IMG/VR virus record: IMGVR_UViG_3300031867_000001
Location: 1-64,000 of that record
DNA length: 64,000 nt
Strand: one strand, 5' to 3'
Source of the DNA: a virus
Taxonomy: Duplodnaviria; Caudoviricetes
Of this stretch, positions 3,201-48,382 are shown piece after piece. A model generated the notes under the pieces. That model was not told the DNA's origin, did no database searches, and worked only from the letters and a program-made list of their open reading frames with translations. The translations under genes were made by a program, and so were the position numbers. How positions within the stretch are numbered: the first letter of the stretch is position 1; every line of letters starts with the position of its first letter.

Positions 3201-4291
3201 AAGATAATAGTGTAGATGCAGATTATGTATCCACAGCAGATGCATTCATGACATCCATCATGCCAATCACGAAAACAATGCCGTGTTGCATATATAGTGC
3301 AAATATGGGTGTCCGCAATTTACCAGTATCAGCCACAGCATCGTTTGTTCAAGTTGTATCGGATGCAGGAACATGTATCCAGAATACAACATCGACGGTG
3401 GAATACAATCGTTATGATTTGACGAAGTGGTATTGTGATGGATTGATTACATTGACAAATGTACCAACGATGTCACATGAAGCTGTATTGGAAGCACTCA
3501 GCAAAGTTGCAACAATCCGTTCAGATTGTTATATTGCATGGAGACCTGACAATGCATCAGACCCATCAAATCATACCGTCATTGCAGGAATCATTTATCG
3601 GTCATTCAATAATTTGAGAAGTGATGCTGTATCAACAACCCTTCCACAGAACAATTTAACATATCAGAATTATGTCAATACAAATGCAAATACAACCATT
3701 GCATGGGACGTTCCAAACATTGGACCGATGGTATGGGTATTCAATCCAAAATATCATTTCCATGAAATATACAAATATGACGAGAATACGAATACGTTGT
3801 CGATTGATCGTGAAATGGTAACTTGGGAGAATGTAGAAATCAATTCCAATAATATCTATTATAAAGAAACTTTAGTAGATGAAAATCATAAGTTGAAGTA
3901 TAATATTATTACAAACAACTTATTCCACCAAGGTGCATCTTCTCATATTGATCAATCTACCATTTATGCACAACCATCATTCTTCGAAGTTGCAATCATT
4001 GGAATGGATGTTTCTACTGCATCATTGACAATTAATCCAACTGGAAATTGGCAGTGTGTATTCCCACGTGTTTCCAGATTCACATTTAAACACGACACAG
4101 ATCCGGAAGCATCATATACACCAATTGAAATGAATTTGGTAAGTGGAGTAAATGTTTCACCACAAGCACATGTATTTGATGATACGACGAAAGCAGATGT
4201 ATCAACATCTACTGTCATCTTTGAAAATACGGCGAATGGTACAATCATGAAACTATTCAATCCAGTTACAGAAACTTGGGAAAAAATATAA
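299..4291 (+). CDS. large putative virion structural (baseplate/tail-associated) protein, 1330 aa
   Basis: Long ORF with TTG start after AAAGGAG; T/N/Y/D-rich, beta-type composition. Function is inferred only. Confidence 0.6.
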   Translation: MSLKKIYDYLGPNALSFVVDQERKHWLLKTHRQKQLVDPHTGDMYQGRVDNFGSDVFIESRKLPINYFTLQDIKYSEKFSYVFQNEPSALTYNSSMNGLVCAKIISTNFPDSFSTFHHYSIHFRNCEEVCIPFAANNNTSAVFAQRWIKTTTPPILLLQDSTGTYSTEVPLTFSPVDKYVVMSEQPDDWETNFTNYYVRTGTGYQSIPSYTIPPQFISNEYFKKIQVEPSNLTFYYPIERDLMPLFIQHLTLEGEWYTEGINNNDQIGLPAFWFTCDLTTVGSCIVLPSDTELFCIGNNGDASKYNAHMYVGVGQGSALDKLTPGSRSTADTYLYVSPTRGYEFNGTASDFNVPLNPNTISMKNVDEEVFQFDYIGENTKFYMNQLSAWEYVSGTSYRIIVSTFDRNRRFTNYNEYPLIPVINIHFDESVDFGNTTTDIGFVGIRGGSGNPESDIYEKYPYTLNKFDGLPEHLTNPNPEDPQEHMAVYAIHNTPSYVETDPNTRQTAALLLDPGRAQHPENLFYYDFYWPFPYNNINWNHQAPLPTEFANDRFFFHITDPSYDLDNDSSRRITGDAWARLFCYHREDDVFTPIVCIELFQEYGNFNENFGAKEFVYMTYTPGTGFDKLNWTNPKNTKEDGTGIEYIDINYVQSTAEDPRPGVDTDNGLRFRIYRNLDLDEANYTRGRVYVLSNDPSEYDNNATSPMPKPARTAARICDIPTSVAQLSGITNIAPTYVVDERYVRTEASYTEADRDRVYNVNSTRWVRPIHLGIDDKPVSTDNDFVFKSVDQLNQVDLISHNEFRYMKQLVPMVDPADVSIGNIIKPGEGYAVNDFGYVYIGGFGFEYHVSEVDDDGKVIGVNLSYPELTDDRKINLSNFNMVGPGSAYTTTYGTTPKTGNGGGLKLQLYIDNFDSIQTYKGGVYTDLFALVRLPDGLWLYTYNVIDTGVEDDNIHGTWVKNTQISEFEDNSVDADYVSTADAFMTSIMPITKTMPCCIYSANMGVRNLPVSATASFVQVVSDAGTCIQNTTSTVEYNRYDLTKWYCDGLITLTNVPTMSHEAVLEALSKVATIRSDCYIAWRPDNASDPSNHTVIAGIIYRSFNNLRSDAVSTTLPQNNLTYQNYVNTNANTTIAWDVPNIGPMVWVFNPKYHFHEIYKYDENTNTLSIDREMVTWENVEINSNNIYYKETLVDENHKLKYNIITNNLFHQGASSHIDQSTIYAQPSFFEVAIIGMDVSTASLTINPTGNWQCVFPRVSRFTFKHDTDPEASYTPIEMNLVSGVNVSPQAHVFDDTTKADVSTSTVIFENTANGTIMKLFNPVTETWEKI

Positions 4292-4299
4292 TAAGTAAG

Positions 4300-4320
4300 G
4301 TGCCCCCATTACGGGGGCAC
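4300..4320. terminator. GC-rich hairpin between convergent genes
   Basis: GTGCCCCC-attac-GGGGGCAC. Confidence 0.7.
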
Positions 4321-4330
4321 ACTTTCTTTA

Positions 4331-4849
4331 TCACGGATTTGATTCATCATAGAATGATTCAAGACAATTGGTCTTCATGATTTTACCAACTGTCTCAAAC
4401 GTTGTATCACTCAATGTGATACACTTTTGCAGTTCCCTTTTTGTCCATCTCTTTACATTGCCGATTTCAAGCACAAACCGAATGAGTGCTTCACCAACAC
4501 GATATTTGAAGAATGCATCATAGAATTCTTGATACAATACAGAGTTTGGATCAGCATTCAAAAATGCATTAATCACAGCTTTACCAAGATCAACATTTGT
4601 ATCAGTTGCATGTAAAGAAACAAAGTCATGCAATGTGATTTGTTTTGCATCCACATTTACAACAGCCACTTTGTTTTCACGAGTTTCATCTTTGATCTGT
4701 TGGTAAATATCACTTGTGACTTTACGGATCAATGTGTTCAACTGTTCATCCGATAAGGATAACATCACTTTGGATGATGGATCGGATTCAACGACATTCT
4801 GTGATGGTGGTGTTTTATTCACATCTTTGTTCGAATGTTCAATAATCAT
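4331..4849 (-). CDS. hypothetical protein
   Basis: 172-aa ORF with GAGGTG RBS. Confidence 0.7.
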   Translation of the reverse strand: MIIEHSNKDVNKTPPSQNVVESDPSSKVMLSLSDEQLNTLIRKVTSDIYQQIKDETRENKVAVVNVDAKQITLHDFVSLHATDTNVDLGKAVINAFLNADPNSVLYQEFYDAFFKYRVGEALIRFVLEIGNVKRWTKRELQKCITLSDTTFETVGKIMKTNCLESFYDESNP

Positions 4850-4904
4850 AATTTATCACCTCATATGAAATTATTTGATTTGCCATAAATCAAATTGTTT
4901 AATG

Positions 4905-5858
4905 TCATGTGAATTTGTGAATTCGTTGTATGTCCATTTTATCACTTGTAACACCATAATCTTTGTCAATCATATTTTGATACAAATAAATGTGTTTAAA
5001 CAATCTTTGTGTTCCATTGTCAATTTTGATAAATCGATTATCAACATCTGAATCTTTGAAGATATGAATCACAACCGAATTACCAAATATGCCCGTTTTC
5101 AAAATATGTGTAATGCCGGATTTATAATCACTACCAAGTGTTGCAATATATAATGCATTTTGCATTGGATAATGATAATACAAACCAATCACGTCCATAA
5201 TTCCTTCGGCAATGACAATGTTAATTGGTTCATGTGTGTCAACACCACATCGCATTGTATAAATCCCACGTCCACGAACATGTTTGGTTGGATAACGAAT
5301 CCAACGATATTCCGTGTCATCGTTATTATATCGACCGATAATGTTTCCATTGTTTAATTGAAACCAATATCGATTCTGTAATACTTTTGGTTGAACTTCA
5401 TTTCTGCCAAAAAAGTCTGTGACATATCCACGTGGATTACCAACATAACGGAATTGTTGTAATTCTTCAAATGTCACATTCACACCAATCCGGTCTTTAA
5501 TGTATTGAATAATGCCAGACGCATCATCATTCTCATTACAGCTGGATTGGTTTAATTTTATGGATGCATACTCGTTTGATTCAATTCGTTTATGATACTT
5601 CACATCTTTTGGTAATGGAATATCCAATTGATATGCCGCTAAGAATTGTTTGTTGACAATTCCACTTTCATTACATTTAAAACAATGCCACAATGGTGGA
5701 TCGTCCGTTGATAATGATATTTTGACATAACAGTGATATTTCGTATCACCACATCGCGGACATAAACGTCCGCGATATTGTTCGTGATTTGTTGGTGTTC
5801 TTTTAAACATACCCGATTGAACCAATGATTCTTTAAACTTCAACAATGATTCATTCAC
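4905..5858 (-). CDS. DNA primase-like protein (Zn ribbon + TOPRIM)
   Basis: CPRCGD...HCFKC zinc finger; TOPRIM motifs IAEGIMD and DSD. Confidence 0.8.
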   Translation of the reverse strand: MNESLLKFKESLVQSGMFKRTPTNHEQYRGRLCPRCGDTKYHCYVKISLSTDDPPLWHCFKCNESGIVNKQFLAAYQLDIPLPKDVKYHKRIESNEYASIKLNQSSCNENDDASGIIQYIKDRIGVNVTFEELQQFRYVGNPRGYVTDFFGRNEVQPKVLQNRYWFQLNNGNIIGRYNNDDTEYRWIRYPTKHVRGRGIYTMRCGVDTHEPINIVIAEGIMDVIGLYYHYPMQNALYIATLGSDYKSGITHILKTGIFGNSVVIHIFKDSDVDNRFIKIDNGTQRLFKHIYLYQNMIDKDYGVTSDKMDIQRIHKFT

Positions 5859-6586: not shown

Positions 6587-6694
6587 AATAATTACTCTCC
6601 TTTGTATTGTATTTAAAAATAAAGAATAGTATTGGAATGTTATTAACACATTAGAAAAACATTATGCATATACATATCATTCACATGTAAGGAG

Positions 6695-7012
6695 GTGAAT
6701 ACCATGTTATTACAATATGAAGAAGTCAACAATAAGAATGATTTGGATGAAGTTGAATTACAACATCTCGGACATCAACTCGTTGGTGTTGTTTCATTCT
6801 ACAAACAATTCATTCCCATAACAGATGATGAGACATTAAAACGATTAAACATTTTAGAATACATCGGAAAAGCAATCATCACCCGTAATTATCATTTATT
6901 AATAAACGATCCAAAGGTTATCAAACGCATATCCGAATTAACCGTCAATGAATATCAGCAAAATTTGTATGAATCCTATGCAGATTTTCGATTCGCCGGA
7001 AAACCATTTTAA
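6695..7012 (+). CDS. hypothetical protein
   Basis: 105-aa ORF with AAGGAGG; followed by hairpin 7018-7041. Confidence 0.65.
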   Translation: MNTMLLQYEEVNNKNDLDEVELQHLGHQLVGVVSFYKQFIPITDDETLKRLNILEYIGKAIITRNYHLLINDPKVIKRISELTVNEYQQNLYESYADFRFAGKPF

Positions 7013-7045
7013 ATGTATATGGGGGCATCAAGCCCCCATATCGCA

Positions 7046-8179
7046 TTATTCAAACGCTTCTTCGTTGATGACGACTTCTCGCTCTTGGGCGCCTTCATCT
7101 GACATTTGATTCATCATTTTTGTATACCGCAACGGACCTTTCCAGTATCCATGACGGAAGAATACTTTATCACCACGATGAACCCAGTGACCGATGACAT
7201 GCCACAACAGTTTCTTTGTTCGTACAACCTTACCGTTCTTATCTTTGCCGAACAAGATATCATCAATGGGATTTGTATTAACAACGATTCTGCGGATATA
7301 CTTCGCTTTCTTGACTTGTTTGGATTTGTTATTTTTTGATGATAACTCATTGACTTGATCACGGATCTTTGCGTCATTTTTGAAGTATTCCTTTAACACA
7401 GGATTCAACAATGCCAATGTGATACCATACCAACATTTTATCATGTTGATTGCCCGTGACGTTATTTCGTGAATCATCTTCTCTGGAGTGATATCGTATT
7501 TAGTCAAGAACGCTTTATCATTTATCAGATTCTTCAAATTATTGGAAAATCCAAGATAAGATCCGTTCAACCCAATCTTGTCTTTATTTGCAATTAGCGG
7601 AAGTGTTACTGTTTCCATTGACTTAGCATTGTTATTTCTCCAAGTTCTCATTGTGATACTACCAACCACGATCGTTTCATCAATGATATCTTTCGTTTCA
7701 ATACCATTCTCCATCTCATATTGATTTGGAGGCAATTCGCCATGAATCTTCATGATGTGTTCAGTAACGATATCTCTGAAGATTCGGATATCAATTGCTG
7801 AATTCGACATGAACTCTTCAGTTCCACCATATCGGTCCGTTTCCGGTTTGGACACCGTAAGTCTTAATCCATCAATCGGAACAGTTTCGTTCCATACAAT
7901 ATCCGGAGGAATCTCCCATGCATTTTTGTCAACACCACATAACTCCGCAAACAGATCTATCTGATCGACCGACAGATCGATTGTATCGGTGATTGGATAC
8001 ATGGAGTGTTGTTTCAACAACCAGTCACGCTGTTCCTTTGTCAAGAATCCATATCCAATTTTTCTGGTTTCTTCATCCGATATGGATTTGACGACTTCGG
8101 AATACTCCCACAAAGAAGTATTTGTCTTTAATAACTCCTTTCCTTCCTTTTCAACAGTTTCTCGCCAGTTAATGATCAT
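7046..8179 (-). CDS. hypothetical phage protein with C-terminal WHVIGHW...GYWKG motif
   Basis: ATG 8179 after AAGGAGAG; the basic GHW-type C-terminal motif recurs in phage proteins. Confidence 0.7.
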   Translation of the reverse strand: MIINWRETVEKEGKELLKTNTSLWEYSEVVKSISDEETRKIGYGFLTKEQRDWLLKQHSMYPITDTIDLSVDQIDLFAELCGVDKNAWEIPPDIVWNETVPIDGLRLTVSKPETDRYGGTEEFMSNSAIDIRIFRDIVTEHIMKIHGELPPNQYEMENGIETKDIIDETIVVGSITMRTWRNNNAKSMETVTLPLIANKDKIGLNGSYLGFSNNLKNLINDKAFLTKYDITPEKMIHEITSRAINMIKCWYGITLALLNPVLKEYFKNDAKIRDQVNELSSKNNKSKQVKKAKYIRRIVVNTNPIDDILFGKDKNGKVVRTKKLLWHVIGHWVHRGDKVFFRHGYWKGPLRYTKMMNQMSDEGAQEREVVINEEAFE

Positions 8180-14078: not shown

Positions 14079-15471
14079 TTATAATGATATCCGATTTAAT
14101 CATGAGAATCGGAATGACTTTAATGAGGGGAAAGGTGATACGAACATAGCAACTCCAGGTTACTCATATCAATACAATGGGTTATCTCCAGAGATGAGAC
14201 CACATGGTTATTCATTATCATTGGCTTGTCAATCTGGTACGGATATGCCACATGCAATTGGTAACGTAACTGCAATCGTATTGCAATTCATTGTGGATTT
14301 ATTTCCACGAAATACATTCAACACTGTATTGCCATCAACTCGTTTGGCACACAGACAATTGAGACATACACCAAAACAGATTCGTTCACAGCCATATCCG
14401 ATGTGTATTGTAACCCCCAGAGTTTCGTTATCGGGTATTGATGATCGTTTAGCAGCTGGATCGTTTGCAACAACACTTTGGTCAACCACATCTTGTAGAT
14501 ACCAGAATCGGTCTGAGATGGAAAGATTATTCTTTGATTCTCGGAAAGGTATTGAATGGCGTGGTAAGATCAATCGTGTAGTTGTTAACTTTGATTTTGT
14601 ATTATCATTTCAAAGTGTTACGGAACAACTCAAATGGGCATCATACTTAATTAACAAAATTCCTACGGAACGAATATTCTTCGATATTGATACTGCATTG
14701 GAATTGGCAATACCGGATGGATTCTTGTTGGAAACATCTCGTTATGCTGGAATTCCAGTCAAAGATGAGAATGGTTCAGTTGCTCAATTTGTTGATTATT
14801 TGAATATGAATTCTGTATATCCAGTCTCTTATCGTTTTTCATCTGGAAAACATAAAGATTGTTTTTATGCATACTATATGACTGCACTGTTGTGTTCGAT
14901 ATCTGATCTGAACTATTCGAACGTGTCTAAAACAAATATGGTCGATACAGACTGTCCGATTACATTTACATTACGATGTGAATTTAATACGATTGGTTTG
15001 TTTGATTTGTCGGTTCCGAATCCCGGACCGTATCGTTTAATTGAACCAAAGAGTGAAGGTATTACCATACCAATATTCTCTGATGTGTTTAATGAGCGTG
15101 ATTTTCCATTGCCATATGGATGGAAAATCCATTCACGACCAATCATCAAATTTGATGATGAAGAAACTGAGATTTGTTTTAAGTCCGTTCTTGGATATGG
15201 ATTGGAAAAGATGCTTGATTACCACATCGAGCATCACATCAATCCAGACTTATTCATCAATGTGAAATTGCGTGAAAACAATGTCATTATTGATGATGGA
15301 TATTATGTCGATTGGAATGAACGAAAAATAAAGTTCGACACGATAAAATATCAATGTACATATCGTTTGATTATATCGATCAATCAGCTGTATATCAACG
15401 ATATGCTAAAGATGTTATACTATAAAGATGACAATGGTATTTCATCCGAAAATCCAAAAAATACTATGTAA
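14071..15471 (+). CDS. conserved jumbo-phage (probably structural) protein
   Basis: 466-aa ORF overlapping the previous stop. Confidence 0.6.
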   Translation: MSDYNDIRFNHENRNDFNEGKGDTNIATPGYSYQYNGLSPEMRPHGYSLSLACQSGTDMPHAIGNVTAIVLQFIVDLFPRNTFNTVLPSTRLAHRQLRHTPKQIRSQPYPMCIVTPRVSLSGIDDRLAAGSFATTLWSTTSCRYQNRSEMERLFFDSRKGIEWRGKINRVVVNFDFVLSFQSVTEQLKWASYLINKIPTERIFFDIDTALELAIPDGFLLETSRYAGIPVKDENGSVAQFVDYLNMNSVYPVSYRFSSGKHKDCFYAYYMTALLCSISDLNYSNVSKTNMVDTDCPITFTLRCEFNTIGLFDLSVPNPGPYRLIEPKSEGITIPIFSDVFNERDFPLPYGWKIHSRPIIKFDDEETEICFKSVLGYGLEKMLDYHIEHHINPDLFINVKLRENNVIIDDGYYVDWNERKIKFDTIKYQCTYRLIISINQLYINDMLKMLYYKDDNGISSENPKNTM

Positions 15472-25772: not shown

Positions 25773-26045
25773 ATGATTTTATATAACCAAAATCACAACA
25801 TCGATGAATCTGTTGAGATGACTGAACAGATCTTTGGTGAGCCCGCAACACCAGCACACTTCTATGAGAAACAAAATGATTTCAATTTGATTCTTGAAGA
25901 TATGATGTCTGGTGCAATTCCAACCAATACGAAACAACCATTCAATGTTGTTTGGAAAGCAGATATTGAAGCTTTGAATAGACAGAATGGTATTCCGTTT
26001 GATAAGCCATATCGGACTTTATCAGATCCGAATGGTATGTTATGA
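25773..26045 (+). CDS. hypothetical protein
   Basis: 90-aa ORF; AAAGGA RBS; hairpin 26056-26081. Confidence 0.6.
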   Translation: MILYNQNHNIDESVEMTEQIFGEPATPAHFYEKQNDFNLILEDMMSGAIPTNTKQPFNVVWKADIEALNRQNGIPFDKPYRTLSDPNGML

Positions 26046-26236
26046 TAAAATAAATGATGGGGAATATTAATATTCCCCATCGCATAACATATGTATTAAA
26101 TTCGCACAATCATGTTCGAAACATTGTCCGGTTTTGAATATGAGTGCATTACTAAACACAAGCTTCCTTGCAATACCTCGACTTGTGTTAACACAACACG
26201 GATGTTCACACTTCCCCGCGCTCATCCGTGTTAAAT

Positions 26237-40341: not shown

Positions 40342-40479
40342 GGGGACGATAGCTCAGTTGGTAGAGCACGTAAATGTCACTGTTACAAAAATCCTCACCG
40401 GATAGGTGATGCAGAAGTTAACAGTTACTTCGCATATGGAGCGCGTTGTCGTTAGTTCAAATCTAACTCGTCCCCCTCA
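40342..40479 (+). ncRNA. tRNA-shaped RNA with a circularly permuted Y-RNA module replacing the anticodon arm
   Basis: GGGGACGA/TCGTCCCC acceptor; GCTC-AGTTGGTA-GAGC D-arm; GTTAG-TTCAAAT-CTAAC T-arm; insert ACTGTTA..ATCCTCACC-loop-GGTGATGCAG..TAACAGTTACTTCG. Confidence 0.72.
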
Positions 40480-40489
40480 TTTAATATTG

Positions 40490-40629
40490 ATATACCGATG
40501 CAGTGATGCCTGGATACTTCGTGGTGAATAGGTTAACACATAAGAATGAAAATCTTACATATCGGGTTCAAGTCCCGACGGGACATCTAATAGATGTTTA
40601 TGTCTCCAAGCTCGATATTCTCGGTATAT
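40490..40629 (+). ncRNA. Y RNA-like RNA, copy 5, enclosing D, anticodon(GAA) and T arms
   Basis: ATATACCGA/TCGGTATAT; GATGCAG..TACTTCG; TAAGA-ATGAAAA-TCTTA; TCGGG-TTCAAGT-CCCGA; ATTCTC. Confidence 0.7.
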
Positions 40630-40638
40630 TAATATAAT

Positions 40639-40715
40639 GCGACTGTAGTTCAATTGGTCAGAACATCTGCCTTCCAAGCAGGGGGTTGCGAATTCGAGTT
40701 TCGTCAGTCGCTCCA
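40639..40715 (+). tRNA. tRNA-Gly(TCC)
   Basis: GCGACTG/CAGTCGC; CTTCCAA loop; CCA. Confidence 0.88.
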
Positions 40716-40716
40716 C

Positions 40717-40815
40717 ATGCATGATGCAGTTATATCAGTTACTTCGATAACCTGTCACGTTATAATGAGTATTCTGCAAAGAATAATGTGTACTGGTATA
40801 AACATTCTCATGCAT
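40717..40815 (+). ncRNA. Y RNA-like RNA, copy 6
   Basis: ATGCATGA/TCATGCAT; GATGCAG..TATATCAGT-TACTTCG...ACTGGTATA..ATTCTC. Confidence 0.72.
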
Positions 40816-40822
40816 ATTATTC

Positions 40823-40896
40823 GGGTCATTAGTCCAGTTGGTTAGAACGCAGCACTGTTAATGCTGATGTCATAGGTTCAAGTCCTATATGGCCCG
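40823..40896 (+). tRNA. tRNA-Asn(GTT)
   Basis: CAGCA-CTGTTAA-TGCTG; GGTTCAAGTCC. Confidence 0.9.
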
Positions 40897-40901
40897 CTTA
40901 T

Positions 40902-40978
40902 GGCTGGTTAGTAGAGTTGGTTAATACACCGGGTTTTCATCCCAGAGATCAGGAGTTCGATCCTCCTACCAGTCACCA
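40902..40978 (+). tRNA. tRNA-Glu(TTC)
   Basis: GGG-TTTTCAT-CCC; GTTCGATC; CCA. Confidence 0.82.
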
Positions 40979-41083
40979 CGGGGTTATTATTTGAATAACC
41001 TCGCATTATGAAATGTTTGCAGGGCTTTTATGCCCTGCATTCATTTTCATTTTATTTTTATCATTTTAATGAGGTGATTAATC

Positions 41084-41278
41084 ATGACTGTTAACAAAAT
41101 CAAATTTCCAGATGGTACAGTAATCGATGTTGATAATGAAAAAACATTGAATGAGATTATGTCAATGCGTAAAGACATTAGAGACTTGAAAGATGCTGTT
41201 GGAACATTGAATTACAGAATCAATGATGTTATGCATATGATCGAAGAATTAAAACGTGATGTTTCATATTTACATTAA
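41084..41278 (+). CDS. small coiled-coil protein
   Basis: GAGGTG RBS; 64 aa. Confidence 0.6.
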   Translation: MTVNKIKFPDGTVIDVDNEKTLNEIMSMRKDIRDLKDAVGTLNYRINDVMHMIEELKRDVSYLH

Positions 41279-41372
41279 ACGATACAACTAACAAATATAG
41301 TGGATGGAATATAGTCGGTCTGATTCTCAAATTTCATACAATGATTCTTCCTTTTGCAACCATCCACTTTAG

Positions 41373-41448
41373 GTCCGTTTAGCTCAGTTGGTAGAGCATG
41401 AAACCTTTAATTTCAGGGCCAAGGGTTCAACTCCCTTAACGGACACCA
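41373..41448 (+). tRNA. tRNA-Lys(TTT), atypical C33
   Basis: GTCCGTT/AACGGAC; TGAAA-CCTTTAA-TTTCA; CCA. Confidence 0.82.
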
Positions 41449-41596
41449 TTGGTGCATTGGTACGTGCACCTCAAACACTGTGTAACGGGTCAATGTCAGT
41501 TCACGGACATTGACCCCCTCCTTCTTTACATGGTGAACGTTATTCACTTCTCATAGTTCGGTCGGGGGATTGCTCCCCCGACTCCTCCTTTTTCTA

Positions 41597-41631
41597 TTTT
41601 TTATATTTTATTTATTTATATAATTAATATG
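41597..41631 (+). promoter_or_regulatory. AT-rich promoter motif upstream of the RAMP gene
   Basis: TATTTATATAATTAATATG core shared with the other promoter copies. Confidence 0.55.
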
Positions 41632-41696
41632 TAATGAACACAGGTCAGGTATTCATTACAATATCATTTATAATAAATCTTTGGAGGTAATGTTTT

Positions 41697-42380
41697 ATGA
41701 AAAAGCTTAATGTCAAGGTCGTATTCGTAACAGGTCTGCTCGGTACAAAGCCGAACAATCAGGAAATCTTCTCGGAGTTTATCGCATCTAATGCACCGGA
41801 TGCAAAGACCCGTCAGCAGGAGATTGAAGACTCGTCCGTATCCGAGGTTGTTGACAAGTCGACAACTGTATTCGCCCGCACCAAGGATGGTAGACCCGTA
41901 TTTATGGACTATCACTGGAAGGGTTACTTCAAGGAGAAGTGCTCGTTCCTGAAGAAGAATGATACCGTTGATGATGGTTCCAAGCCGAAGTCCGCATCCA
42001 TCAAGGCTTTCAAGAAAGAGATTGATGGAAACATCTTCGTGTATCCCCGCAAGATCGTAATCCATACTGATGATGAGCTCACGATCAACCAGAGACCTCT
42101 CCGCACACAGACTATGCAGGGTGAACGTGTTGCGCTCAATTCGTCTGAGGAGATTCATGCACGTTCGTGGTGTGAGTTCACCGTAGAGTGCGAAATCGAG
42201 AAGCATGTTGAGTCCGTTCGTGAGTGGCTGAATTATGGTGTTAAGCACGGCACTGGTCAGTGGAGAAACTCTGGTGCAGGTAGATTCCTGTGGATGGAAC
42301 TCGATGATGAAGGAAACCAGATCGGTGGAAACTACACGGAAGAGAAACTCGAAGAGCTGATTGCTGAAGACGAGCTGTAA
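41697..42380 (+). CDS. stand-alone Cas7/Csm3-like RAMP protein (Vipr-like)
   Basis: RAMP signatures: LNVKVVFVTGLLG, DGRPVFMDYHWKGYFKE, SEEIHARSWCEFTV and the Gly-rich loop GTGQWRNSGAGRF; no other cas gene in the window. Confidence 0.8.
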   Translation: MKKLNVKVVFVTGLLGTKPNNQEIFSEFIASNAPDAKTRQQEIEDSSVSEVVDKSTTVFARTKDGRPVFMDYHWKGYFKEKCSFLKKNDTVDDGSKPKSASIKAFKKEIDGNIFVYPRKIVIHTDDELTINQRPLRTQTMQGERVALNSSEEIHARSWCEFTVECEIEKHVESVREWLNYGVKHGTGQWRNSGAGRFLWMELDDEGNQIGGNYTEEKLEELIAEDEL

Positions 42381-42390
42381 TATGTGTGAT

Positions 42391-42419
42391 AATATGGTGG
42401 GAGTTACTCCCACCATATT
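42391..42419 (+). terminator. hairpin between RAMP gene and array (terminator or processing site)
   Basis: AATATGGTGGGAG-TTA-CTCCCACCATATT. Confidence 0.6.
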
Positions 42420-42432
42420 TATATATCGCATT

Positions 42433-43000
42433 GGTATAGCTTAGTTAGATAGCGTGATATTCAGTAACGGTCCAGCCCCGCGAAGTAGGGCAGTGTAACG
42501 GTTAGGCGTGGTCCAATGTAGTGAAGTAATGTAAAGGTATAGTGTGGACCAGCGTAGAAATGTGTTGGTACGGTGTAGTCCAACAAAGTAAGGTTGTGTG
42601 CCGGTATGGTGGAACAAAGTAGGATCATGTAATGTGCTGGTACGACGACGTGGAGTAGATTCAAGTTTCGCACTGTAATGGCATGGTGAAGCAAGGTGAA
42701 GCACCGTAATGTTATGGCACGGTATGTTGAGGTCAAGTAAAGTAATGGTATGGTGGAGCCGTGTAATCTTCTGTAAAGGTATAGTCAGGTGATGTAACGT
42801 CTGGTAACGGTAATGTCAAGTGAAGTAATGCAGAAGTAATGTAATGGTTTTGTATGGTGTTGTGGACCAGAGTGAGACGATGCTTTGTATCGGTACTGTC
42901 TTGTACTTTGCGGCTTGGTATGGCATAGGTACAGTATTCCGTTGTTCGATAATATACAGCATGGGTACTGCGCAGTTCAATACGGTTCCGTGTGGCGAAT
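42433..43000 (+). repeat. pentameric NGYNN array 1 (about 16 units), putative guide-RNA array
   Basis: Units start GGY and comprise 6-9 pentamers plus one extra base, e.g. GGTAT AGTCA GGTGA TGTAA CGTCT GGTAA C. Confidence 0.85.
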
Positions 43001-43031
43001 CTTATAATAATAAAGAAGGAGAGTGTTAAAT

Positions 43032-43751
43032 ATGCATAAGGTTGATGGAGCAGAACTTCTCGGAATTCTCATTCGTAAGCTTACGGAGAATTGGGAGAAG
43101 TTGTGTGATGAATATTTGGACGAGGGTGAAGATCGTCCATCTTTCGGAGTTCTCCCAACGACCAATTACATCAAATGGTCAAAGGAAAACATCATCAGCA
43201 GTGTTAAGCTGATCAGCGTTGAAGACGAAATATCTGTTGAGGGTGTTAATGGCGCACTTAATGTGGTATGTAATCAGATTGATGGTATGATATTAAACGG
43301 ATATCCGATCCTTGATGATCTGGTTGTCGGATATGATGATGACGATGTTGCAGTATACCATAAGTCATATACCATTCTTGCGGAGAATCTTGCAACGATG
43401 ATGGTAGACGTGCGTGTTCCGGAATTGCTACTGGACTATCTGTATCTCTATCAGAAAATCTGCATTGGCAGATACCTGTATGAGATCAGAAACGTCATCA
43501 CTGATGATGTTGTGACTGGTGCTGATATACTTGGCAAACTGAATAGCTTTGCTATTAGTACACTGGGAGAAAATGCGAAAGTTAATAAGCTTGATCCATT
43601 AAGTAAGTTCGAAGTTGTGACATATGAACGAGAAGCAATCAAGTATGTTGGTATTGATCTGGATCATATCCGGTATGTATTCAAGACATACAATCAAACC
43701 ATTGAAAGATCGCGGACTTTCTATGTCCCCGATGACATTTACAATTCGTAA
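43032..43751 (+). CDS. hypothetical protein embedded between the two arrays
   Basis: ATG 43032 after AAGGAGAG; stop codon lies within the first array-2 delimiter CGTAAT. Confidence 0.75.
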   Translation: MHKVDGAELLGILIRKLTENWEKLCDEYLDEGEDRPSFGVLPTTNYIKWSKENIISSVKLISVEDEISVEGVNGALNVVCNQIDGMILNGYPILDDLVVGYDDDDVAVYHKSYTILAENLATMMVDVRVPELLLDYLYLYQKICIGRYLYEIRNVITDDVVTGADILGKLNSFAISTLGENAKVNKLDPLSKFEVVTYEREAIKYVGIDLDHIRYVFKTYNQTIERSRTFYVPDDIYNS

Positions 43752-45080
43752 TGGTATTGTACAGCGCCGTACAGTGCAATACAGTCCGGTGATGGTAGGG
43801 TGGAGTAAAGTCTCACGGCGTAAAGTCCAGTCATGGCAAAGCAAAGTGTTACAATGTACAGGCGAAACGAGGTATCATATTGCAACGTAATGTGAAGGTT
43901 AGGCGAATCTGGGTACAGTATCGCGTTGTAATGGTAAAGTAAAGTGCACTTTCGTAGCGTCCTGTAATGGTTAAGTTTAGCATTGTGATGTTTAACTGAA
44001 GTTCAGCATAGTGATGTGTCGGCGAAGTAAAGCGTCGTAATATCACGTAAGGTGACGTCATGGTATGGCAAAGCTGCGTAGTATATTGTCTCGTGATGTA
44101 ATGGTAAAGCAAAGTACTGCGGAGTAAAATCTGGTGACGTAAAGGTCATGTTACGTATTGTGTCATCATGTACGGTGCTGGTATGGCAAAGTTACTCAGT
44201 GTATTGTAAAGGCAAAGCAGCGCAATCTCCTGTATTGTTAAGGCAAAGTCAGGTCATGTAATATCCCGTAATGTAAGGGTGAAGCATCGTGCCGAATCGC
44301 ATTGTCTCGTACCGTGTAGGTTATGTTAGGTGAATTAGGGCACAGCATTGTGTTGTATCGGTAAAGCTTAGCTATGTAAGTAAAGTAAGGTATCGGCAAC
44401 GTAAGGTCATACAGCGCACAATAAATTTGTGTAATGGCAGAGTACAGCTTAGCGTGATCACGCATTGTAATGTTTCGGCAAGGAATTGTTATGTTATGTT
44501 CAGGCAGAGTATAGTTGATTGTCGTTATATTTAGCTATGTTCAGGTATTGTGATGCTAAGTGGGCTATAGCACGGTGTTGGTGACGCTAAGTTTGGTATG
44601 GTGGTGTAATGGTTATGTGAAGTTCTGTACAGTCACGGTAAAGTGGAGCATCGTAGGGTGATGTGACGGTTATGTTTAGTTACACACTGCAATGTCACGT
44701 ATTATGTCATCATGTAATGGTAAGGTAGAGTGGAACAATCTTGTGCTGAGTGTAGGTAATGTGGCGCTAAGCAAAGTACTGGTAAAGTTTGGCATGATGA
44801 TATGACGGTGTAGTATAGTTCATCTCAGTAGCGTAACGGTTATGTTTAATGACGTAGAGTAACGTCTCGGCAAGGTATACCTATGTTTTCTGAAGTAATG
44901 TTTTGGTATTGTTATGCACGCTCATGCTAAGCTAAGCAGGGTTTGGTGCAGCGTCGGTATTGTATAGGCTTCTCACGTACAGTTGTGTCGAGTAAAGCAG
45001 CGGTGTTGCATAGTATGATCGAGCGCCGTAGTGGTGTTGTATGCCAGGGTTGACATGCGTTATGTCCGGTATTGTTATAC
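43747..45080 (+). repeat. pentameric NGYNN array 2 (about 35-38 units)
   Basis: Same grammar, e.g. GGTAA AGCAA AGTAC TGCGG AGTAA AATCT GGTGA CGTAA A; no credible ORF. Confidence 0.85.
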
Positions 45081-45096
45081 CACAACAAAAAGAATT

Positions 45097-45130
45097 AAAC
45101 CCCGCCCATATGGGCGGGGCATTCTTTTTT
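45097..45130. terminator. bidirectional terminator closing the array transcript and the lysin gene
   Basis: CCCCGCCCA-TA-TGGGCGGGG followed by a T-run. Confidence 0.75.
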
Positions 45131-46088
45131 ATACTTTCAGCTTCCAACCAACCTTGATGAAGTTTGGAGTAATCTGGGGATACTTGGACTTGTTGTTGTT
45201 AACAATCTTCTTGACAGTAGTCTTGTACTTACTTGCAATTGCACCGAGTGTATCACCACGTTTAACCGTGTATGTTCTCTCAGCATTCGCTTGTGCTGTC
45301 TTAGCAGCGTTTGCTTTCAGAAGCTTATTGACTGCTTCTTGTACAGCCGCATAGTTATAACCAGCTGCTGCCAAACGAGTCTTTCTGTCAGCACCATTAC
45401 CCCACTTACCATCCAGAACTTCTTGAGCAATTTCATCAATACTCTTGGTAGGAGTTGTCGGTTTGGTGGGTGTTACAACTACATCATCATCATTAGACTT
45501 TCCGATATTGTCATTATAACAATATGACATATCTACATCACCGACAATACCATTGATTCGACCCTTCCAAGAATATTGCCACATATCAAATGGACCGGCA
45601 TAAGAGGTCTGTTTGCAATTTATCTGTGCTACCCAGACGGTGTACTTATTCTTCATCTCAGTAGTGAGATAATCAGTCAATCCAGACTTCATGGAATACA
45701 GTCCAGGTGTGTAACCACCATCCTTGATGGTTTGACAGAAAGCATCAGCCATTGCACTTACATTGTTTCTACCAGTATTCAATTGAGATCTTTCTTCAAA
45801 GTCAAAGTATACTGGGAATTGAAGCTTTCTACCGCCCAGAACCTGAAGACATACTTGTGCTTCAAGTTTTGCATCAGCAACTGTCTTGGCATAAGAATAC
45901 CAATACACGCCAACTGGGATGTTGTTATCTACACAACCTTGGTAGTTGCGATCAAACTTCTTATCCTTCTGAGATGCAAGTTTACCAAAACCTGCACGGA
46001 GAATGGCGAAGTTTACTCGATTGGATGCCTTTACTTTAGCCCAATCAATCGTACCATTATGCACGGATACATCAATACCATGTCTCAT
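45129..46088 (-). CDS. endolysin: GH25 muramidase + CW_7 repeat + LysM
   Basis: GIDVSVHNG, VYFDFE, WQYSWKG, DVDM; SIDEIAQEVLDGKWGNGADRK; YTVKRGDTLGAIA. Confidence 0.93.
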   Translation of the reverse strand: MRHGIDVSVHNGTIDWAKVKASNRVNFAILRAGFGKLASQKDKKFDRNYQGCVDNNIPVGVYWYSYAKTVADAKLEAQVCLQVLGGRKLQFPVYFDFEERSQLNTGRNNVSAMADAFCQTIKDGGYTPGLYSMKSGLTDYLTTEMKNKYTVWVAQINCKQTSYAGPFDMWQYSWKGRINGIVGDVDMSYCYNDNIGKSNDDDVVVTPTKPTTPTKSIDEIAQEVLDGKWGNGADRKTRLAAAGYNYAAVQEAVNKLLKANAAKTAQANAERTYTVKRGDTLGAIASKYKTTVKKIVNNNKSKYPQITPNFIKVGWKLKV

Positions 46089-47173: not shown

Positions 47174-48382
47174 ATGTCTGAAATTTCTAAAATAAATATT
47201 CCAGATCAATCAAGTCAAACTGGTACAGCAACCTATGATATTAAAGATTCAAATGCTCGAACAAGAATCGTTGACTCTGGTACGAAAAATAAATTAATGA
47301 TATCCGAAAGTATCTTAATCAACTATCCAAGCGGTAGAACGGTGAATGGAGTTACGTTCACTATCAATTCGGATGACCAAACAATTAGTGTTACTGGACA
47401 AATTACTGATAACACACAAGATGCAACTTTTACATTTGGAACGTGTGATACTGTATTGGGTGATTTGTTGTATGAAGGGTTTGAAACTGCTAATTCATTG
47501 GCGTACATTGAAACCACCACTGGCAATACAAAGTTGAATGTAAATCCAGTTGAACCGATTTCATCAAGTGATATTGGAACTGGTAAGCAGTTCAGAATCG
47601 TAATCGATAAAGGATATGTTGGTGAAATTGATCTTACATTCAAGCCGATGGTTTGTTCATCTGAAGATTTTGAAGTAAGTGACGAATATGTTCCATATGC
47701 AAAATCCAATTATGAATTAACAAAGAACTGTGGTGAGAGAGTTTTCGGCAAAACATTCTCAGATAACACAATCGGTGGAAGATATGCTGAGATATTTAAT
47801 GATTATTCTACCAATAAAGCGTCTGGTACTTGGTCTCATGCCGAAGGATCTGGTACAACAGCGTCTGGTTCGATGTCACATGCTGAAGGAGTTCGTACAA
47901 GAGCATCTGGTTACTATTCTCATGCTGAAGGATCGTGGACAACAGCGTCTGGTGACTGGTCTCATGCCGAAGGATATTATACAAGAGCATCTGGTGACGA
48001 GTCCCATACCGAAGGATCGCGGACAACAGCGTCTGGTCAATGTTCTCATGCTGAAGGATATTATACAACTGCGTCTGGTCCATGTTCACATGCTGAAGGA
48101 AATAGTACAACAGCATCTGGTGACGAGTCCCATGCTGAAGGAAATGGTACAACAGCTGCATCACGATATCAGCATGTCCAAGGAAAATATAATGTTGCAG
48201 ATTCATCAAGCACATATGCCTTCATAATTGGTAATGGTACCTCATCCAGTGCCCGCCACAACGCTTTTGCTATTGATTGGAATGGCTTGATTTACGTAAA
48301 CGGCGCAACAACCGGTGTAGATGTAGCTGCCTTAGCAGCTACAATCGGAGATATTAATACAGTATTGGAGAGTGTTTTATAA
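47174..48382 (+). CDS. tail fibre/adhesin-like protein with 14-aa SHAEG repeats
   Basis: About 8 tandem ASGxxSHAEGxxTx repeats (YadA/Hep-Hag-like beta roll) and IIGNG...NAF motif. Confidence 0.75.
   Translation: MSEISKINIPDQSSQTGTATYDIKDSNARTRIVDSGTKNKLMISESILINYPSGRTVNGVTFTINSDDQTISVTGQITDNTQDATFTFGTCDTVLGDLLYEGFETANSLAYIETTTGNTKLNVNPVEPISSSDIGTGKQFRIVIDKGYVGEIDLTFKPMVCSSEDFEVSDEYVPYAKSNYELTKNCGERVFGKTFSDNTIGGRYAEIFNDYSTNKASGTWSHAEGSGTTASGSMSHAEGVRTRASGYYSHAEGSWTTASGDWSHAEGYYTRASGDESHTEGSRTTASGQCSHAEGYYTTASGPCSHAEGNSTTASGDESHAEGNGTTAASRYQHVQGKYNVADSSSTYAFIIGNGTSSSARHNAFAIDWNGLIYVNGATTGVDVAALAATIGDINTVLESVL
47818..48160 (+). repeat. 42-bp coding tandem repeat
   Basis: GC(G/A)TCTGGT...CATGCTGAAGGA repeated about 8 times. 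Confidence 0.85.

Follow-up and report, generated by a model that had tools for sequence, protein, structure and literature searches.

IMG/VR record IMGVR_UViG_3300031867_000001 is a complete virus genome (250,503 bp, G+C content 37.6%) whose direct terminal repeats measure 127 bp; near-identical DNA is contained in bovine gut metagenomes, and the source virus is a 250.5-kb jumbo phage of the cattle rumen. We here describe a locus within the first 64 kb of this record (the stretch analysed, referred to as the window), in which vipr, the gene of a small Cas7-like protein, is accompanied by two tracts of pentamer-built units, and which very probably represents a Viral Interference Programmable Repeat (VIPR) system of the staggered-array kind. 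The locus forms a single rightward unit, with a tRNA cluster on its left and a convergent lysin gene on its right, and a megablast search with it against GenBank phages returned no match. Its features, including the predicted protein-coding open reading frames (ORFs), are the following:

40515–41448: cluster of tRNA genes (Phe, Gly, Asn, Glu, Lys) immediately 5′ of the locus.
41560–41583, plus strand: terminator-like hairpin (10-bp stem, T-run) closing the tRNA cluster; left boundary of the locus.
41635–41662, plus strand: promoter-like site within the AT-rich leader (TGAACA-16-TACAAT), matching the consensus only weakly.
41697–42380, plus strand: vipr, a 227-aa ORF preceded by GGAGG.
42392–42418, plus strand: hairpin just 3′ of the vipr stop codon (12-bp stem, 3-nt loop, then TTATATAT; read from the sequence).
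42469–42999, plus strand: vrRNA array 1, 531 nt, about 15–16 staggered units of 26–46 nt (z 8.2 for period 5).
43032–43751, plus strand: 239-aa ORF between the arrays, starting with ATG, with the Shine–Dalgarno sequence AAGGAGAG at 43016–43023.
43753–45082, plus strand: vrRNA array 2, 1330 nt, about 37 staggered units of 26–51 nt (z 13.6 for period 5).
45100–45119: bidirectional intrinsic terminator with 8 G–C pairs, common to the locus and the convergent lysin gene; right boundary of the locus.
45129–46088, minus strand: GH25-type lysin gene.

A first-pass annotation, made by a model from the letters alone, had proposed much of this layout. The 227-aa ORF, the hairpin behind it and the closing terminator are present as it had described them, whereas the roughly 1.9 kb of periodic non-coding DNA, although on the same strand and of nearly that length (~1.86 kb), falls into two tracts split by the 239-aa ORF rather than forming one. 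The promoter motif it had pointed out exists at 41635–41662, but such sites occur at chance frequency in the region (13 found vs 12.2 expected). The hairpin at 42392–42418 has a counterpart 3′ of vipr in a relative (L082, introduced below) and likely acts as an attenuator or as a stabiliser of RNA ends between vipr and array 1.

What kind of protein is Vipr? Searches with models from Pfam, PHROG, NCBIfam and PADLOC gave no match, the protein staying below the threshold of the Pfam RAMPs family. Its AlphaFold2 (AF2) model, built from a 43-sequence alignment (pLDDT 82.7, pTM 0.79), comprises an N-terminal strand, a helical insertion, a helix at residues 71–85, a long β-hairpin at 129–153 (the thumb) and a glycine loop, GTGQWRNSGAGRF, at residues 185–197, which belongs to a C-terminal loop, G-x-G-Q-W-R-N-S-G-x-G-R-F, that is invariant family-wide. 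All 50 PDB matches listed by Foldseek are chains of CRISPR effector complexes (type III, VII or IV), with E values down to 1.4e-7. VIA, an aligner independent of Foldseek, likewise returned mostly RAMP proteins, with Z scores of 10.6 to a Cmr-beta chain (root-mean-square deviation 3.4 over 158 aligned residues), 10.3 to a Csm chain and 9.7 to a Csm3 chain. In a search of PDB sequences, the Vipr family profile matched type VII Cas7 and Csm4 at their glycine loops (E 0.003), and the best viral structure match, in BFVD, is a gut-phage protein, 46% identical, which UniProt names ‘Cas system-associated RAMP superfamily protein’. As modelled, Vipr is a minimal single-RRM, Cas7-like RAMP protein with a thumb hairpin and a glycine loop, and the Cas7/Csm3-type fold anticipated by the first-pass annotation is borne out by both structure prediction and Foldseek. 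The family is large: one search retrieved 747 homologues, another 1470 clusters at 50% identity.

Like the Cas7, Csm3 and Cmr4 proteins of type III, IV and VII systems, which it resembles in its fold (Z up to 10.6) and glycine loop, Vipr is predicted to polymerise head-to-tail. Three copies associated in silico with a score of 0.69 as compared to 0.01 for the best control, a mark reached by 20 of 30 solved homo-pairs and by 1 of 23 single chains in the benchmark. At least 51% of contacts agreed between trimer prediction runs, the partner pLDDT was at least 76, and the predicted interface sets the glycine-loop face of one copy against the helix-1 face of the next. The modelling supports filament formation by Vipr, but the predicted polymer may partly reflect a memory of solved Cas7 filaments. 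Compared with these CRISPR proteins, the protein described here is a minimal, single-RRM one and its step is 5 nt instead of 6 nt. Moreover, as opposed to a class 1 CRISPR-Cas locus, there is no Cas1, no CRISPR-like repeat array and no other cas gene to be seen: Cas1, Pfam RAMPs matches and CRISPR-like repeat arrays were absent from the whole 250,503-bp genome, extending what had been noted for the window, and further cas genes were found neither at the locus nor at the homologue loci.

The two tracts next to vipr follow a strict grammar. Their lag-5 identity is 0.42 in either tract vs 0.27 in shuffles (z 8.2 for array 1 and 13.6 for array 2), the period-5 signal that the first-pass annotation had expected of an autocorrelation, while the genes flanking the tracts have coding period 3 only. 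Segmentation with a five-state phase tracker rewarding a G followed by a pyrimidine yielded 53 segments, in good agreement with the ~50 units first proposed. All but one (52/53) have a length of 5n+1, mostly 26, 31, 36 or 41 nt, which means that the phase moves by exactly one base per boundary; about 52 of the units are guide-sized, and 47 of the 53 segments begin with GGY. A unit can thus be written as GGYNN + (NGYNN)n + one extra base. Within the internal pentamers, position 1 is relaxed (A.38, T.25, G.21, C.16), with G at position 2 in.79 and a pyrimidine at position 3 in.98; positions 4 and 5 vary and are rich in A, and the final pentamer of a unit is frequently TGTAA. The relaxed NGY scaffold had been recognised correctly by the earlier reading.

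Unit borders depart from this relaxed pattern. The first base is G in all 47 GGY-starting units, as compared to 21% G at the same position internally, and at the single extra base G is found in just 2 of the 47. Abutting guides are offset by one base at their boundary, with neither tails nor ribozymes in between, and no Rfam family except tRNAs reached its threshold in the locus region. No run of four consecutive variable dinucleotides is common to any two units, so that all units are distinct. The arrays are strictly biased as to strand, and their predicted RNA is poor in C (14%) and not significantly structured (z −1.0). Reading the guides as degenerate peptides gave no recognisable motif. 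Two further windows with weak period 5, at 14850–15100 and 25900–26100, were rejected as arrays, the former lying inside a 466-aa ORF.

Is this pairing of a gene and periodic DNA peculiar to one phage? We fetched 80 viral loci with vipr homologues from IMG/VR and in 77 of them a tract of period 5 lies no more than about 600 nt from the gene; the pairing of vipr and array is conserved across the protein family, as the first-pass annotation had proposed to check. The homologue arrays lie mostly on the strand of the gene, their units measure 26–46 nt, and shifts of +1 are strongly dominant. Among 178 unique guides from 47 homologue loci, G occupies position 1 in 28% and position 2 in 94%, and a pyrimidine occupies position 3 in 83%, from which we conclude that a relaxed first base and a staggered grammar characterise the clade as a whole. 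Most homologues have 10–25 segments; the repertoire of about 52 units is among the largest in the loci compared, yet is not unique, since in one other phage (L002, IMGVR_UViG_3300010163_000006, 155,671 bp) vipr is flanked on both sides by staggered segments, about 58 altogether (3775–5425 and 6600–7125). An unusually large repertoire had been claimed from the window alone, which stands relative to most homologues only. The two largest arrays among these loci are both in large (>150 kb) phages, while most homologue contigs measure 40–60 kb and have vipr and a staggered array among early-region genes. Neighbours there include a CI-like HTH/S24 repressor (50 of 80 loci), a Rha/ANT antirepressor, Erf recombinase, SSB and DUF1351; a dedicated accessory neighbour common to the homologue loci was not found, only such general early-region genes.

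A close comparison is offered by the relative L082, a 266-kb contig. Over the region corresponding to vipr and the arrays (L082:4835–7374 vs 41697–45082 of the window), its Vipr protein is 98.6% identical despite a DNA identity of only ~82%, which points to very strong purifying selection on Vipr; neighbouring proteins are 69–75% identical. The gene order in L082 is vipr, a 375-nt array of 7 units, a homologue of the 239-aa ORF, a 260-aa ORF and the lysin gene. This array has units in common with array 1 that are recognisably homologous but differ in their variable bases, and its units are far fewer, so that guide sets turn over while the protein stays nearly constant.

The 239-aa ORF between the arrays, which the first-pass annotation had counted as an extra gene of the system, has only 20 homologues, all 64–78% identical. 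It matches no family in Pfam, PHROGs, NCBIfam or PADLOC, an Atlas search gave no usable match, and its AF2 model (pLDDT 60) is too poor for a fold search. In two related phages that have neither vipr nor a periodic tract (L084 and L087), homologues of this ORF are followed by a 247–259-aa ORF and the GH25 lysin gene. Because it adjoins the lysin in such vipr-less relatives, the ORF reads as part of the phage backbone, and judging by these comparisons it is probably a conserved lineage gene and a bystander rather than a system part. By synteny, array 2 stands where related phages have their 247–260-aa ORF.

VIPR systems, which the first-pass annotation had invoked, do exist in the recent literature (bioRxiv 10.64898/2026.04.26.720920,.720927, 2026.10.15.759431). 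Reported in April 2026 (bioRxiv 10.64898/2026.04.26.720920), they are CRISPR-related systems for RNA-guided DNA silencing and have been proposed as an ancestor of CRISPR effectors. According to the April report, Vipr is a minimal RAMP protein that binds vrRNAs composed of GGY/NN pentamers, whose NN bases pair with DNA such that every third target base is skipped and transcription is repressed; the elements targeted in nature are satellites, prophages and other VIPR systems; and seven types (I–VII) are distinguished, with vap genes named only for types II–VII (bioRxiv 10.64898/2026.04.26.720920). Cryo-EM has resolved one protomer per pentamer, with G1 read by H17 and D177, G2 by R138 and W178, and Y3 held in a pocket with R179 (bioRxiv 10.64898/2026.04.26.720927). 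Complete filaments need a DNA third strand (bioRxiv 10.64898/2026.04.26.720920,.720927), and the mechanistic studies so far concern type II systems only (SUSP1 and P. fulva).

How does the present locus compare? Staggered vrRNA array VIPRs, as far as they are set out in the text description and the legend of fig. S18 of the first report, likewise consist of a lone Cas7-like vipr gene in a virus, accompanied by tandem pentamers on the same strand; the guides are separated by neither tails nor ribozymes, successive guides abut with a one-base offset, and cas genes and a CRISPR array are lacking. That the grammar (5n+1 lengths, GGY start, non-G extra base) is identical is our own reading of this legend and text. 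Unlike the staggered VIPRs described there, the locus has about 52 units in two blocks, resides in a 250-kb jumbo phage and has no recognisable vap gene. With vap genes named only for types II–VII, it might by elimination be a type I VIPR. Non-canonical motifs such as WGT/NN and TGH/NN beside Vipr-like folds are a further point of contact (bioRxiv 10.64898/2026.10.21.760802): these clusters share with the locus a pentamer with a fixed trinucleotide degenerate at one position and an adjacent Vipr-like fold, but that work describes motif classes detected by entropy periodicity and does not deal with this locus, its +1 punctuation or its size.

An experimentally studied reference is the type II system of Escherichia phage SUSP1, which we located by strict GGYNN runs at 27.6–29.25 kb on the minus strand of KT454805.2. 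Its Vipr (ALH47069; PDB sequence entry 36pp, ‘SUSP1 Vipr protein’) belongs to the same size class (195 vs 227 aa), the glycine-loop motif G-x-G-x-W-R...G-R-F of the two proteins aligns, and in SUSP1, too, pentamer guides flank the gene on its own strand; entry 36pp was not among the fold matches to our Vipr listed by Foldseek and VIA. SUSP1 has 4 guides of ~100 nt, each with 9–16 strict GGYNN repeats and a structured 3′ tail, and a vap1 gene, as opposed to about 52 guides of 26–51 nt in the rumen phage, where the first base is relaxed and both tails and vap are lacking. Within alignments that are weak overall, the glycine loops match clearly, as G-V-G-D177-W178-R179 in SUSP1 and G-T-G-Q188-W189-R190 here, and H17 of SUSP1 falls opposite T17 in a single-sequence hhalign comparison that is weak as well. 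Within the clade, T17 and Q188 are nearly invariant. Thus, of the residues reading G2 and Y3, W178 and R179 are kept as W189 and R190, while the G1-reading pair H17 and D177 is replaced, which fits an array whose position 1 is free. These substitutions may underlie the relaxed first base, to judge from the aligned sequences.

Taken together, we regard it as highly probable that the locus is a VIPR system of the staggered-array kind, consisting of a Cas7-like gene and about 52 units built from NGYNN on the same strand. How would such a system operate? By analogy with the work on SUSP1 and P. fulva, a single rightward transcript would start in the AT-rich leader and end at the terminator at 45100. 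Of the sequence words of the locus, RNA sequencing runs contain only small shares (0.23 and 0.09; for array 2, 0.12 and 0.11), which speak neither for nor against expression. If the rules of the published systems apply, Vipr would coat this RNA with one protomer per pentamer, holding G2 and Y3 and exposing the next two bases; the exposed dinucleotides would pair with a DNA strand in such a way that every third target base is passed over, and transcription of a competitor element would thereby be silenced. To this we add a suggestion of our own, namely that the units of this clade may be punctuated by the +1 register shift instead of 3′ tails or ribozymes. Where an extra non-G base is followed by the strict GG-Y, the old register would read x-G-G, presenting a purine to the pyrimidine pocket. 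The filament should stop at this point, given that the old register puts a purine where a pyrimidine is required, and the same GG would open the new register for the next filament. Punctuation of this sort would explain the strict GG at unit starts, the near-absence of G at the extra base and the invariant 5n+1 lengths alike. Exposed junctions could be trimmed by host nucleases.

What might these guides target? In the phage's own genome, under seven reading rules (NN with 0–3 skips, NNN with 0–2), the best matches equalled those of shuffled guides, and perfect matches all came from units of 5–6 pentamers. Neither did 114 unique long guides from all VIPR loci match 2.4 Mb of phage DNA better than shuffles did; a 16/16 match of an L082 guide on another locus (L074) lay in a purine-rich low-complexity stretch and was rejected. 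An exact scan of IMG/VR under the published rule returned 0 matches for six long guides, four from this phage and two from relatives. One 16-base guide had 14 matches, spread over about eight unrelated contig groups with no common gene, the guide at 44905 had 0 matches in metagenomes and genomes, and the guide at 44668 had 7 genome and 5 metagenome matches in unrelated taxa and genes, about the chance estimate for its AT-rich pattern. This last guide, of 10 pentamers (44668–44718), agrees in all 20 specified bases with G001:C8:22766–22794 (= L118, L122), within a 494-aa ORF without a Pfam family on a 26%-GC contig of a 1.2-Mb rumen metagenome-assembled genome. Since the other 51 guides are not enriched on that 53.7-kb contig, we rejected the match as chance. 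This null result would be expected alike from gaps in the databases, from tolerated mismatches and from another reading rule.

Composition offers a hint as to the kind of target. The variable dinucleotides (239 in total) fit codon positions 1–2 of the sense strand best, with a log-likelihood per dinucleotide of −2.648, followed by −2.701 for the genome background and −2.791 for the antisense strand. It has been pointed out that the one-base skip matches codon periodicity (bioRxiv 2026.10.15.759431), and the composition of the guides is suggestive in this respect, agreeing with a wobble-skip targeting of coding DNA via the template strand.

Several observations weigh against the locus being a staggered VIPR system. 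About 23% of the internal pentamers (53/229) lack GY, for which reason part of the array may be decaying. The units are short, with 5–10 pentamers as compared to 9–16 in SUSP1, and under the published rule they specify 10–20 bases each. Small-RNA sequencing has confirmed ribozyme and single-guide architectures only, not staggered arrays (bioRxiv 10.64898/2026.04.26.720920). No accessory (vap) gene, usual in VIPR systems but not present in all, was identified at the locus, and no natural target was found in any scan of genomes, phage loci or databases. Finally, resemblance to SUSP1 Vipr is faint: hhalign matched the clade profile to the SUSP1 sequence weakly (E 0.03, 172 collinear columns) and to a 36-sequence SUSP1-clade profile at E 0.022 with a probability of ~2%, over the C-terminal 116 columns including the glycine loop, and a hidden Markov model search of the SUSP1 genome found nothing. 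In view of this weak similarity, membership in the VIPR family rests on fold, motif and context, not on sequence.

The relaxed first base, the shortness of the units and the empty target scans invite a different decoding of the same arrays. The first base of each pentamer could serve as a third guide base, such that NNN triplets alternate with a flipped-out GY; a short unit would then specify 15–30 bases, with a target spacing unlike the published 1-nt skip. This would accommodate a position 1 that is fully variable across the clade, the alignment of the G1-contacting residues of SUSP1 with T17 and Q188, units too short for good specificity when two of five bases are read, and the six long guides without an exact full-length match in IMG/VR under the published rule. 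Under triplet rules, however, shuffled guides matched as well as the real ones, both in the phage's own genome and in the 2.4 Mb of related phage DNA, the repeats YNNNG and NNNNG have been listed as variants of the same system with no other reading rule proposed (bioRxiv 10.64898/2026.04.26.720920), and targets missing from the databases explain the absent matches equally well. We consider a three-of-five code improbable. The same low expectation attaches to its fuller form, in which the first base is freed from protein recognition (H17 replaced by T17, D177 by Q188) and read as third guide base while guides are delimited by the +1 shift only. If true, this would amount to punctuation by protein register, with no need for a tail, a ribozyme or a Cas6-like nuclease.

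Alternatively, Vipr and its RNAs might act on RNA instead of DNA, silencing or cleaving mRNAs in the manner of type III Cas7 proteins. Among solved structures, the RNA-targeting Csm3 and Cmr4 are indeed closest in fold, and the VIPR guide duplex can hold an RNA strand according to the published cryo-EM data (bioRxiv 10.64898/2026.04.26.720927). Yet the guide dinucleotides resemble the coding sense strand and not its complement, so that most guides could not pair with mRNA, and the published systems are repressors of transcription whose complete filaments depend on DNA as a third strand; on balance, we hold RNA targeting to be very unlikely. Least credible of all is that the tracts are no guide RNAs but a DNA-level feature (a protein-binding or structural repeat) or a decayed relic beside a RAMP gene, as the degeneracy of about a fifth of the internal pentamers might suggest, for this sits poorly with the strict strand bias and C depletion (14%), the 5n+1 grammar of 52/53 segments, its recurrence beside homologues in 77/80 loci from unrelated phages, the difference of every unit in its variable bases and the homologous but mutated units of L082, whose Vipr is 98.6% identical, pointing to ongoing selection.

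Some observations on the surroundings of the locus may be of use to others. On the left, an Rfam-only tRNA match without an ARAGORN call is spread over 133 nt (40343–40475) and may be an interrupted or permuted tRNA. On the right, the lysin homologues at neighbouring loci contain GH25, CW_7 and LysM domains according to Pfam, which suggests a Gram-positive host for the rumen jumbo phage, and a 402-aa ORF on the plus strand (47174–48382) with many tandem repeats of ~9 residues, including about ten SHAEG motifs, looks like a tail-fibre repeat protein.

What, then, does the locus add? The staggered layout, the relaxed motif and the VIPR kind itself are all in the literature already, and no new kind of system is established here. 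VIPR systems do, however, constitute a newly described class of programmable RNA-guided DNA binders, and the locus is a clean and very large natural example of their experimentally untried staggered, relaxed-motif type. It combines about 52 different guides with the lack of tails and of an accessory gene, and comes with a close relative whose Vipr is nearly the same while its set of units differs. These features make it a convenient substrate for asking how guides are delimited without processing elements, whether the first base of a pentamer carries information and why a jumbo phage should need 52 guides.

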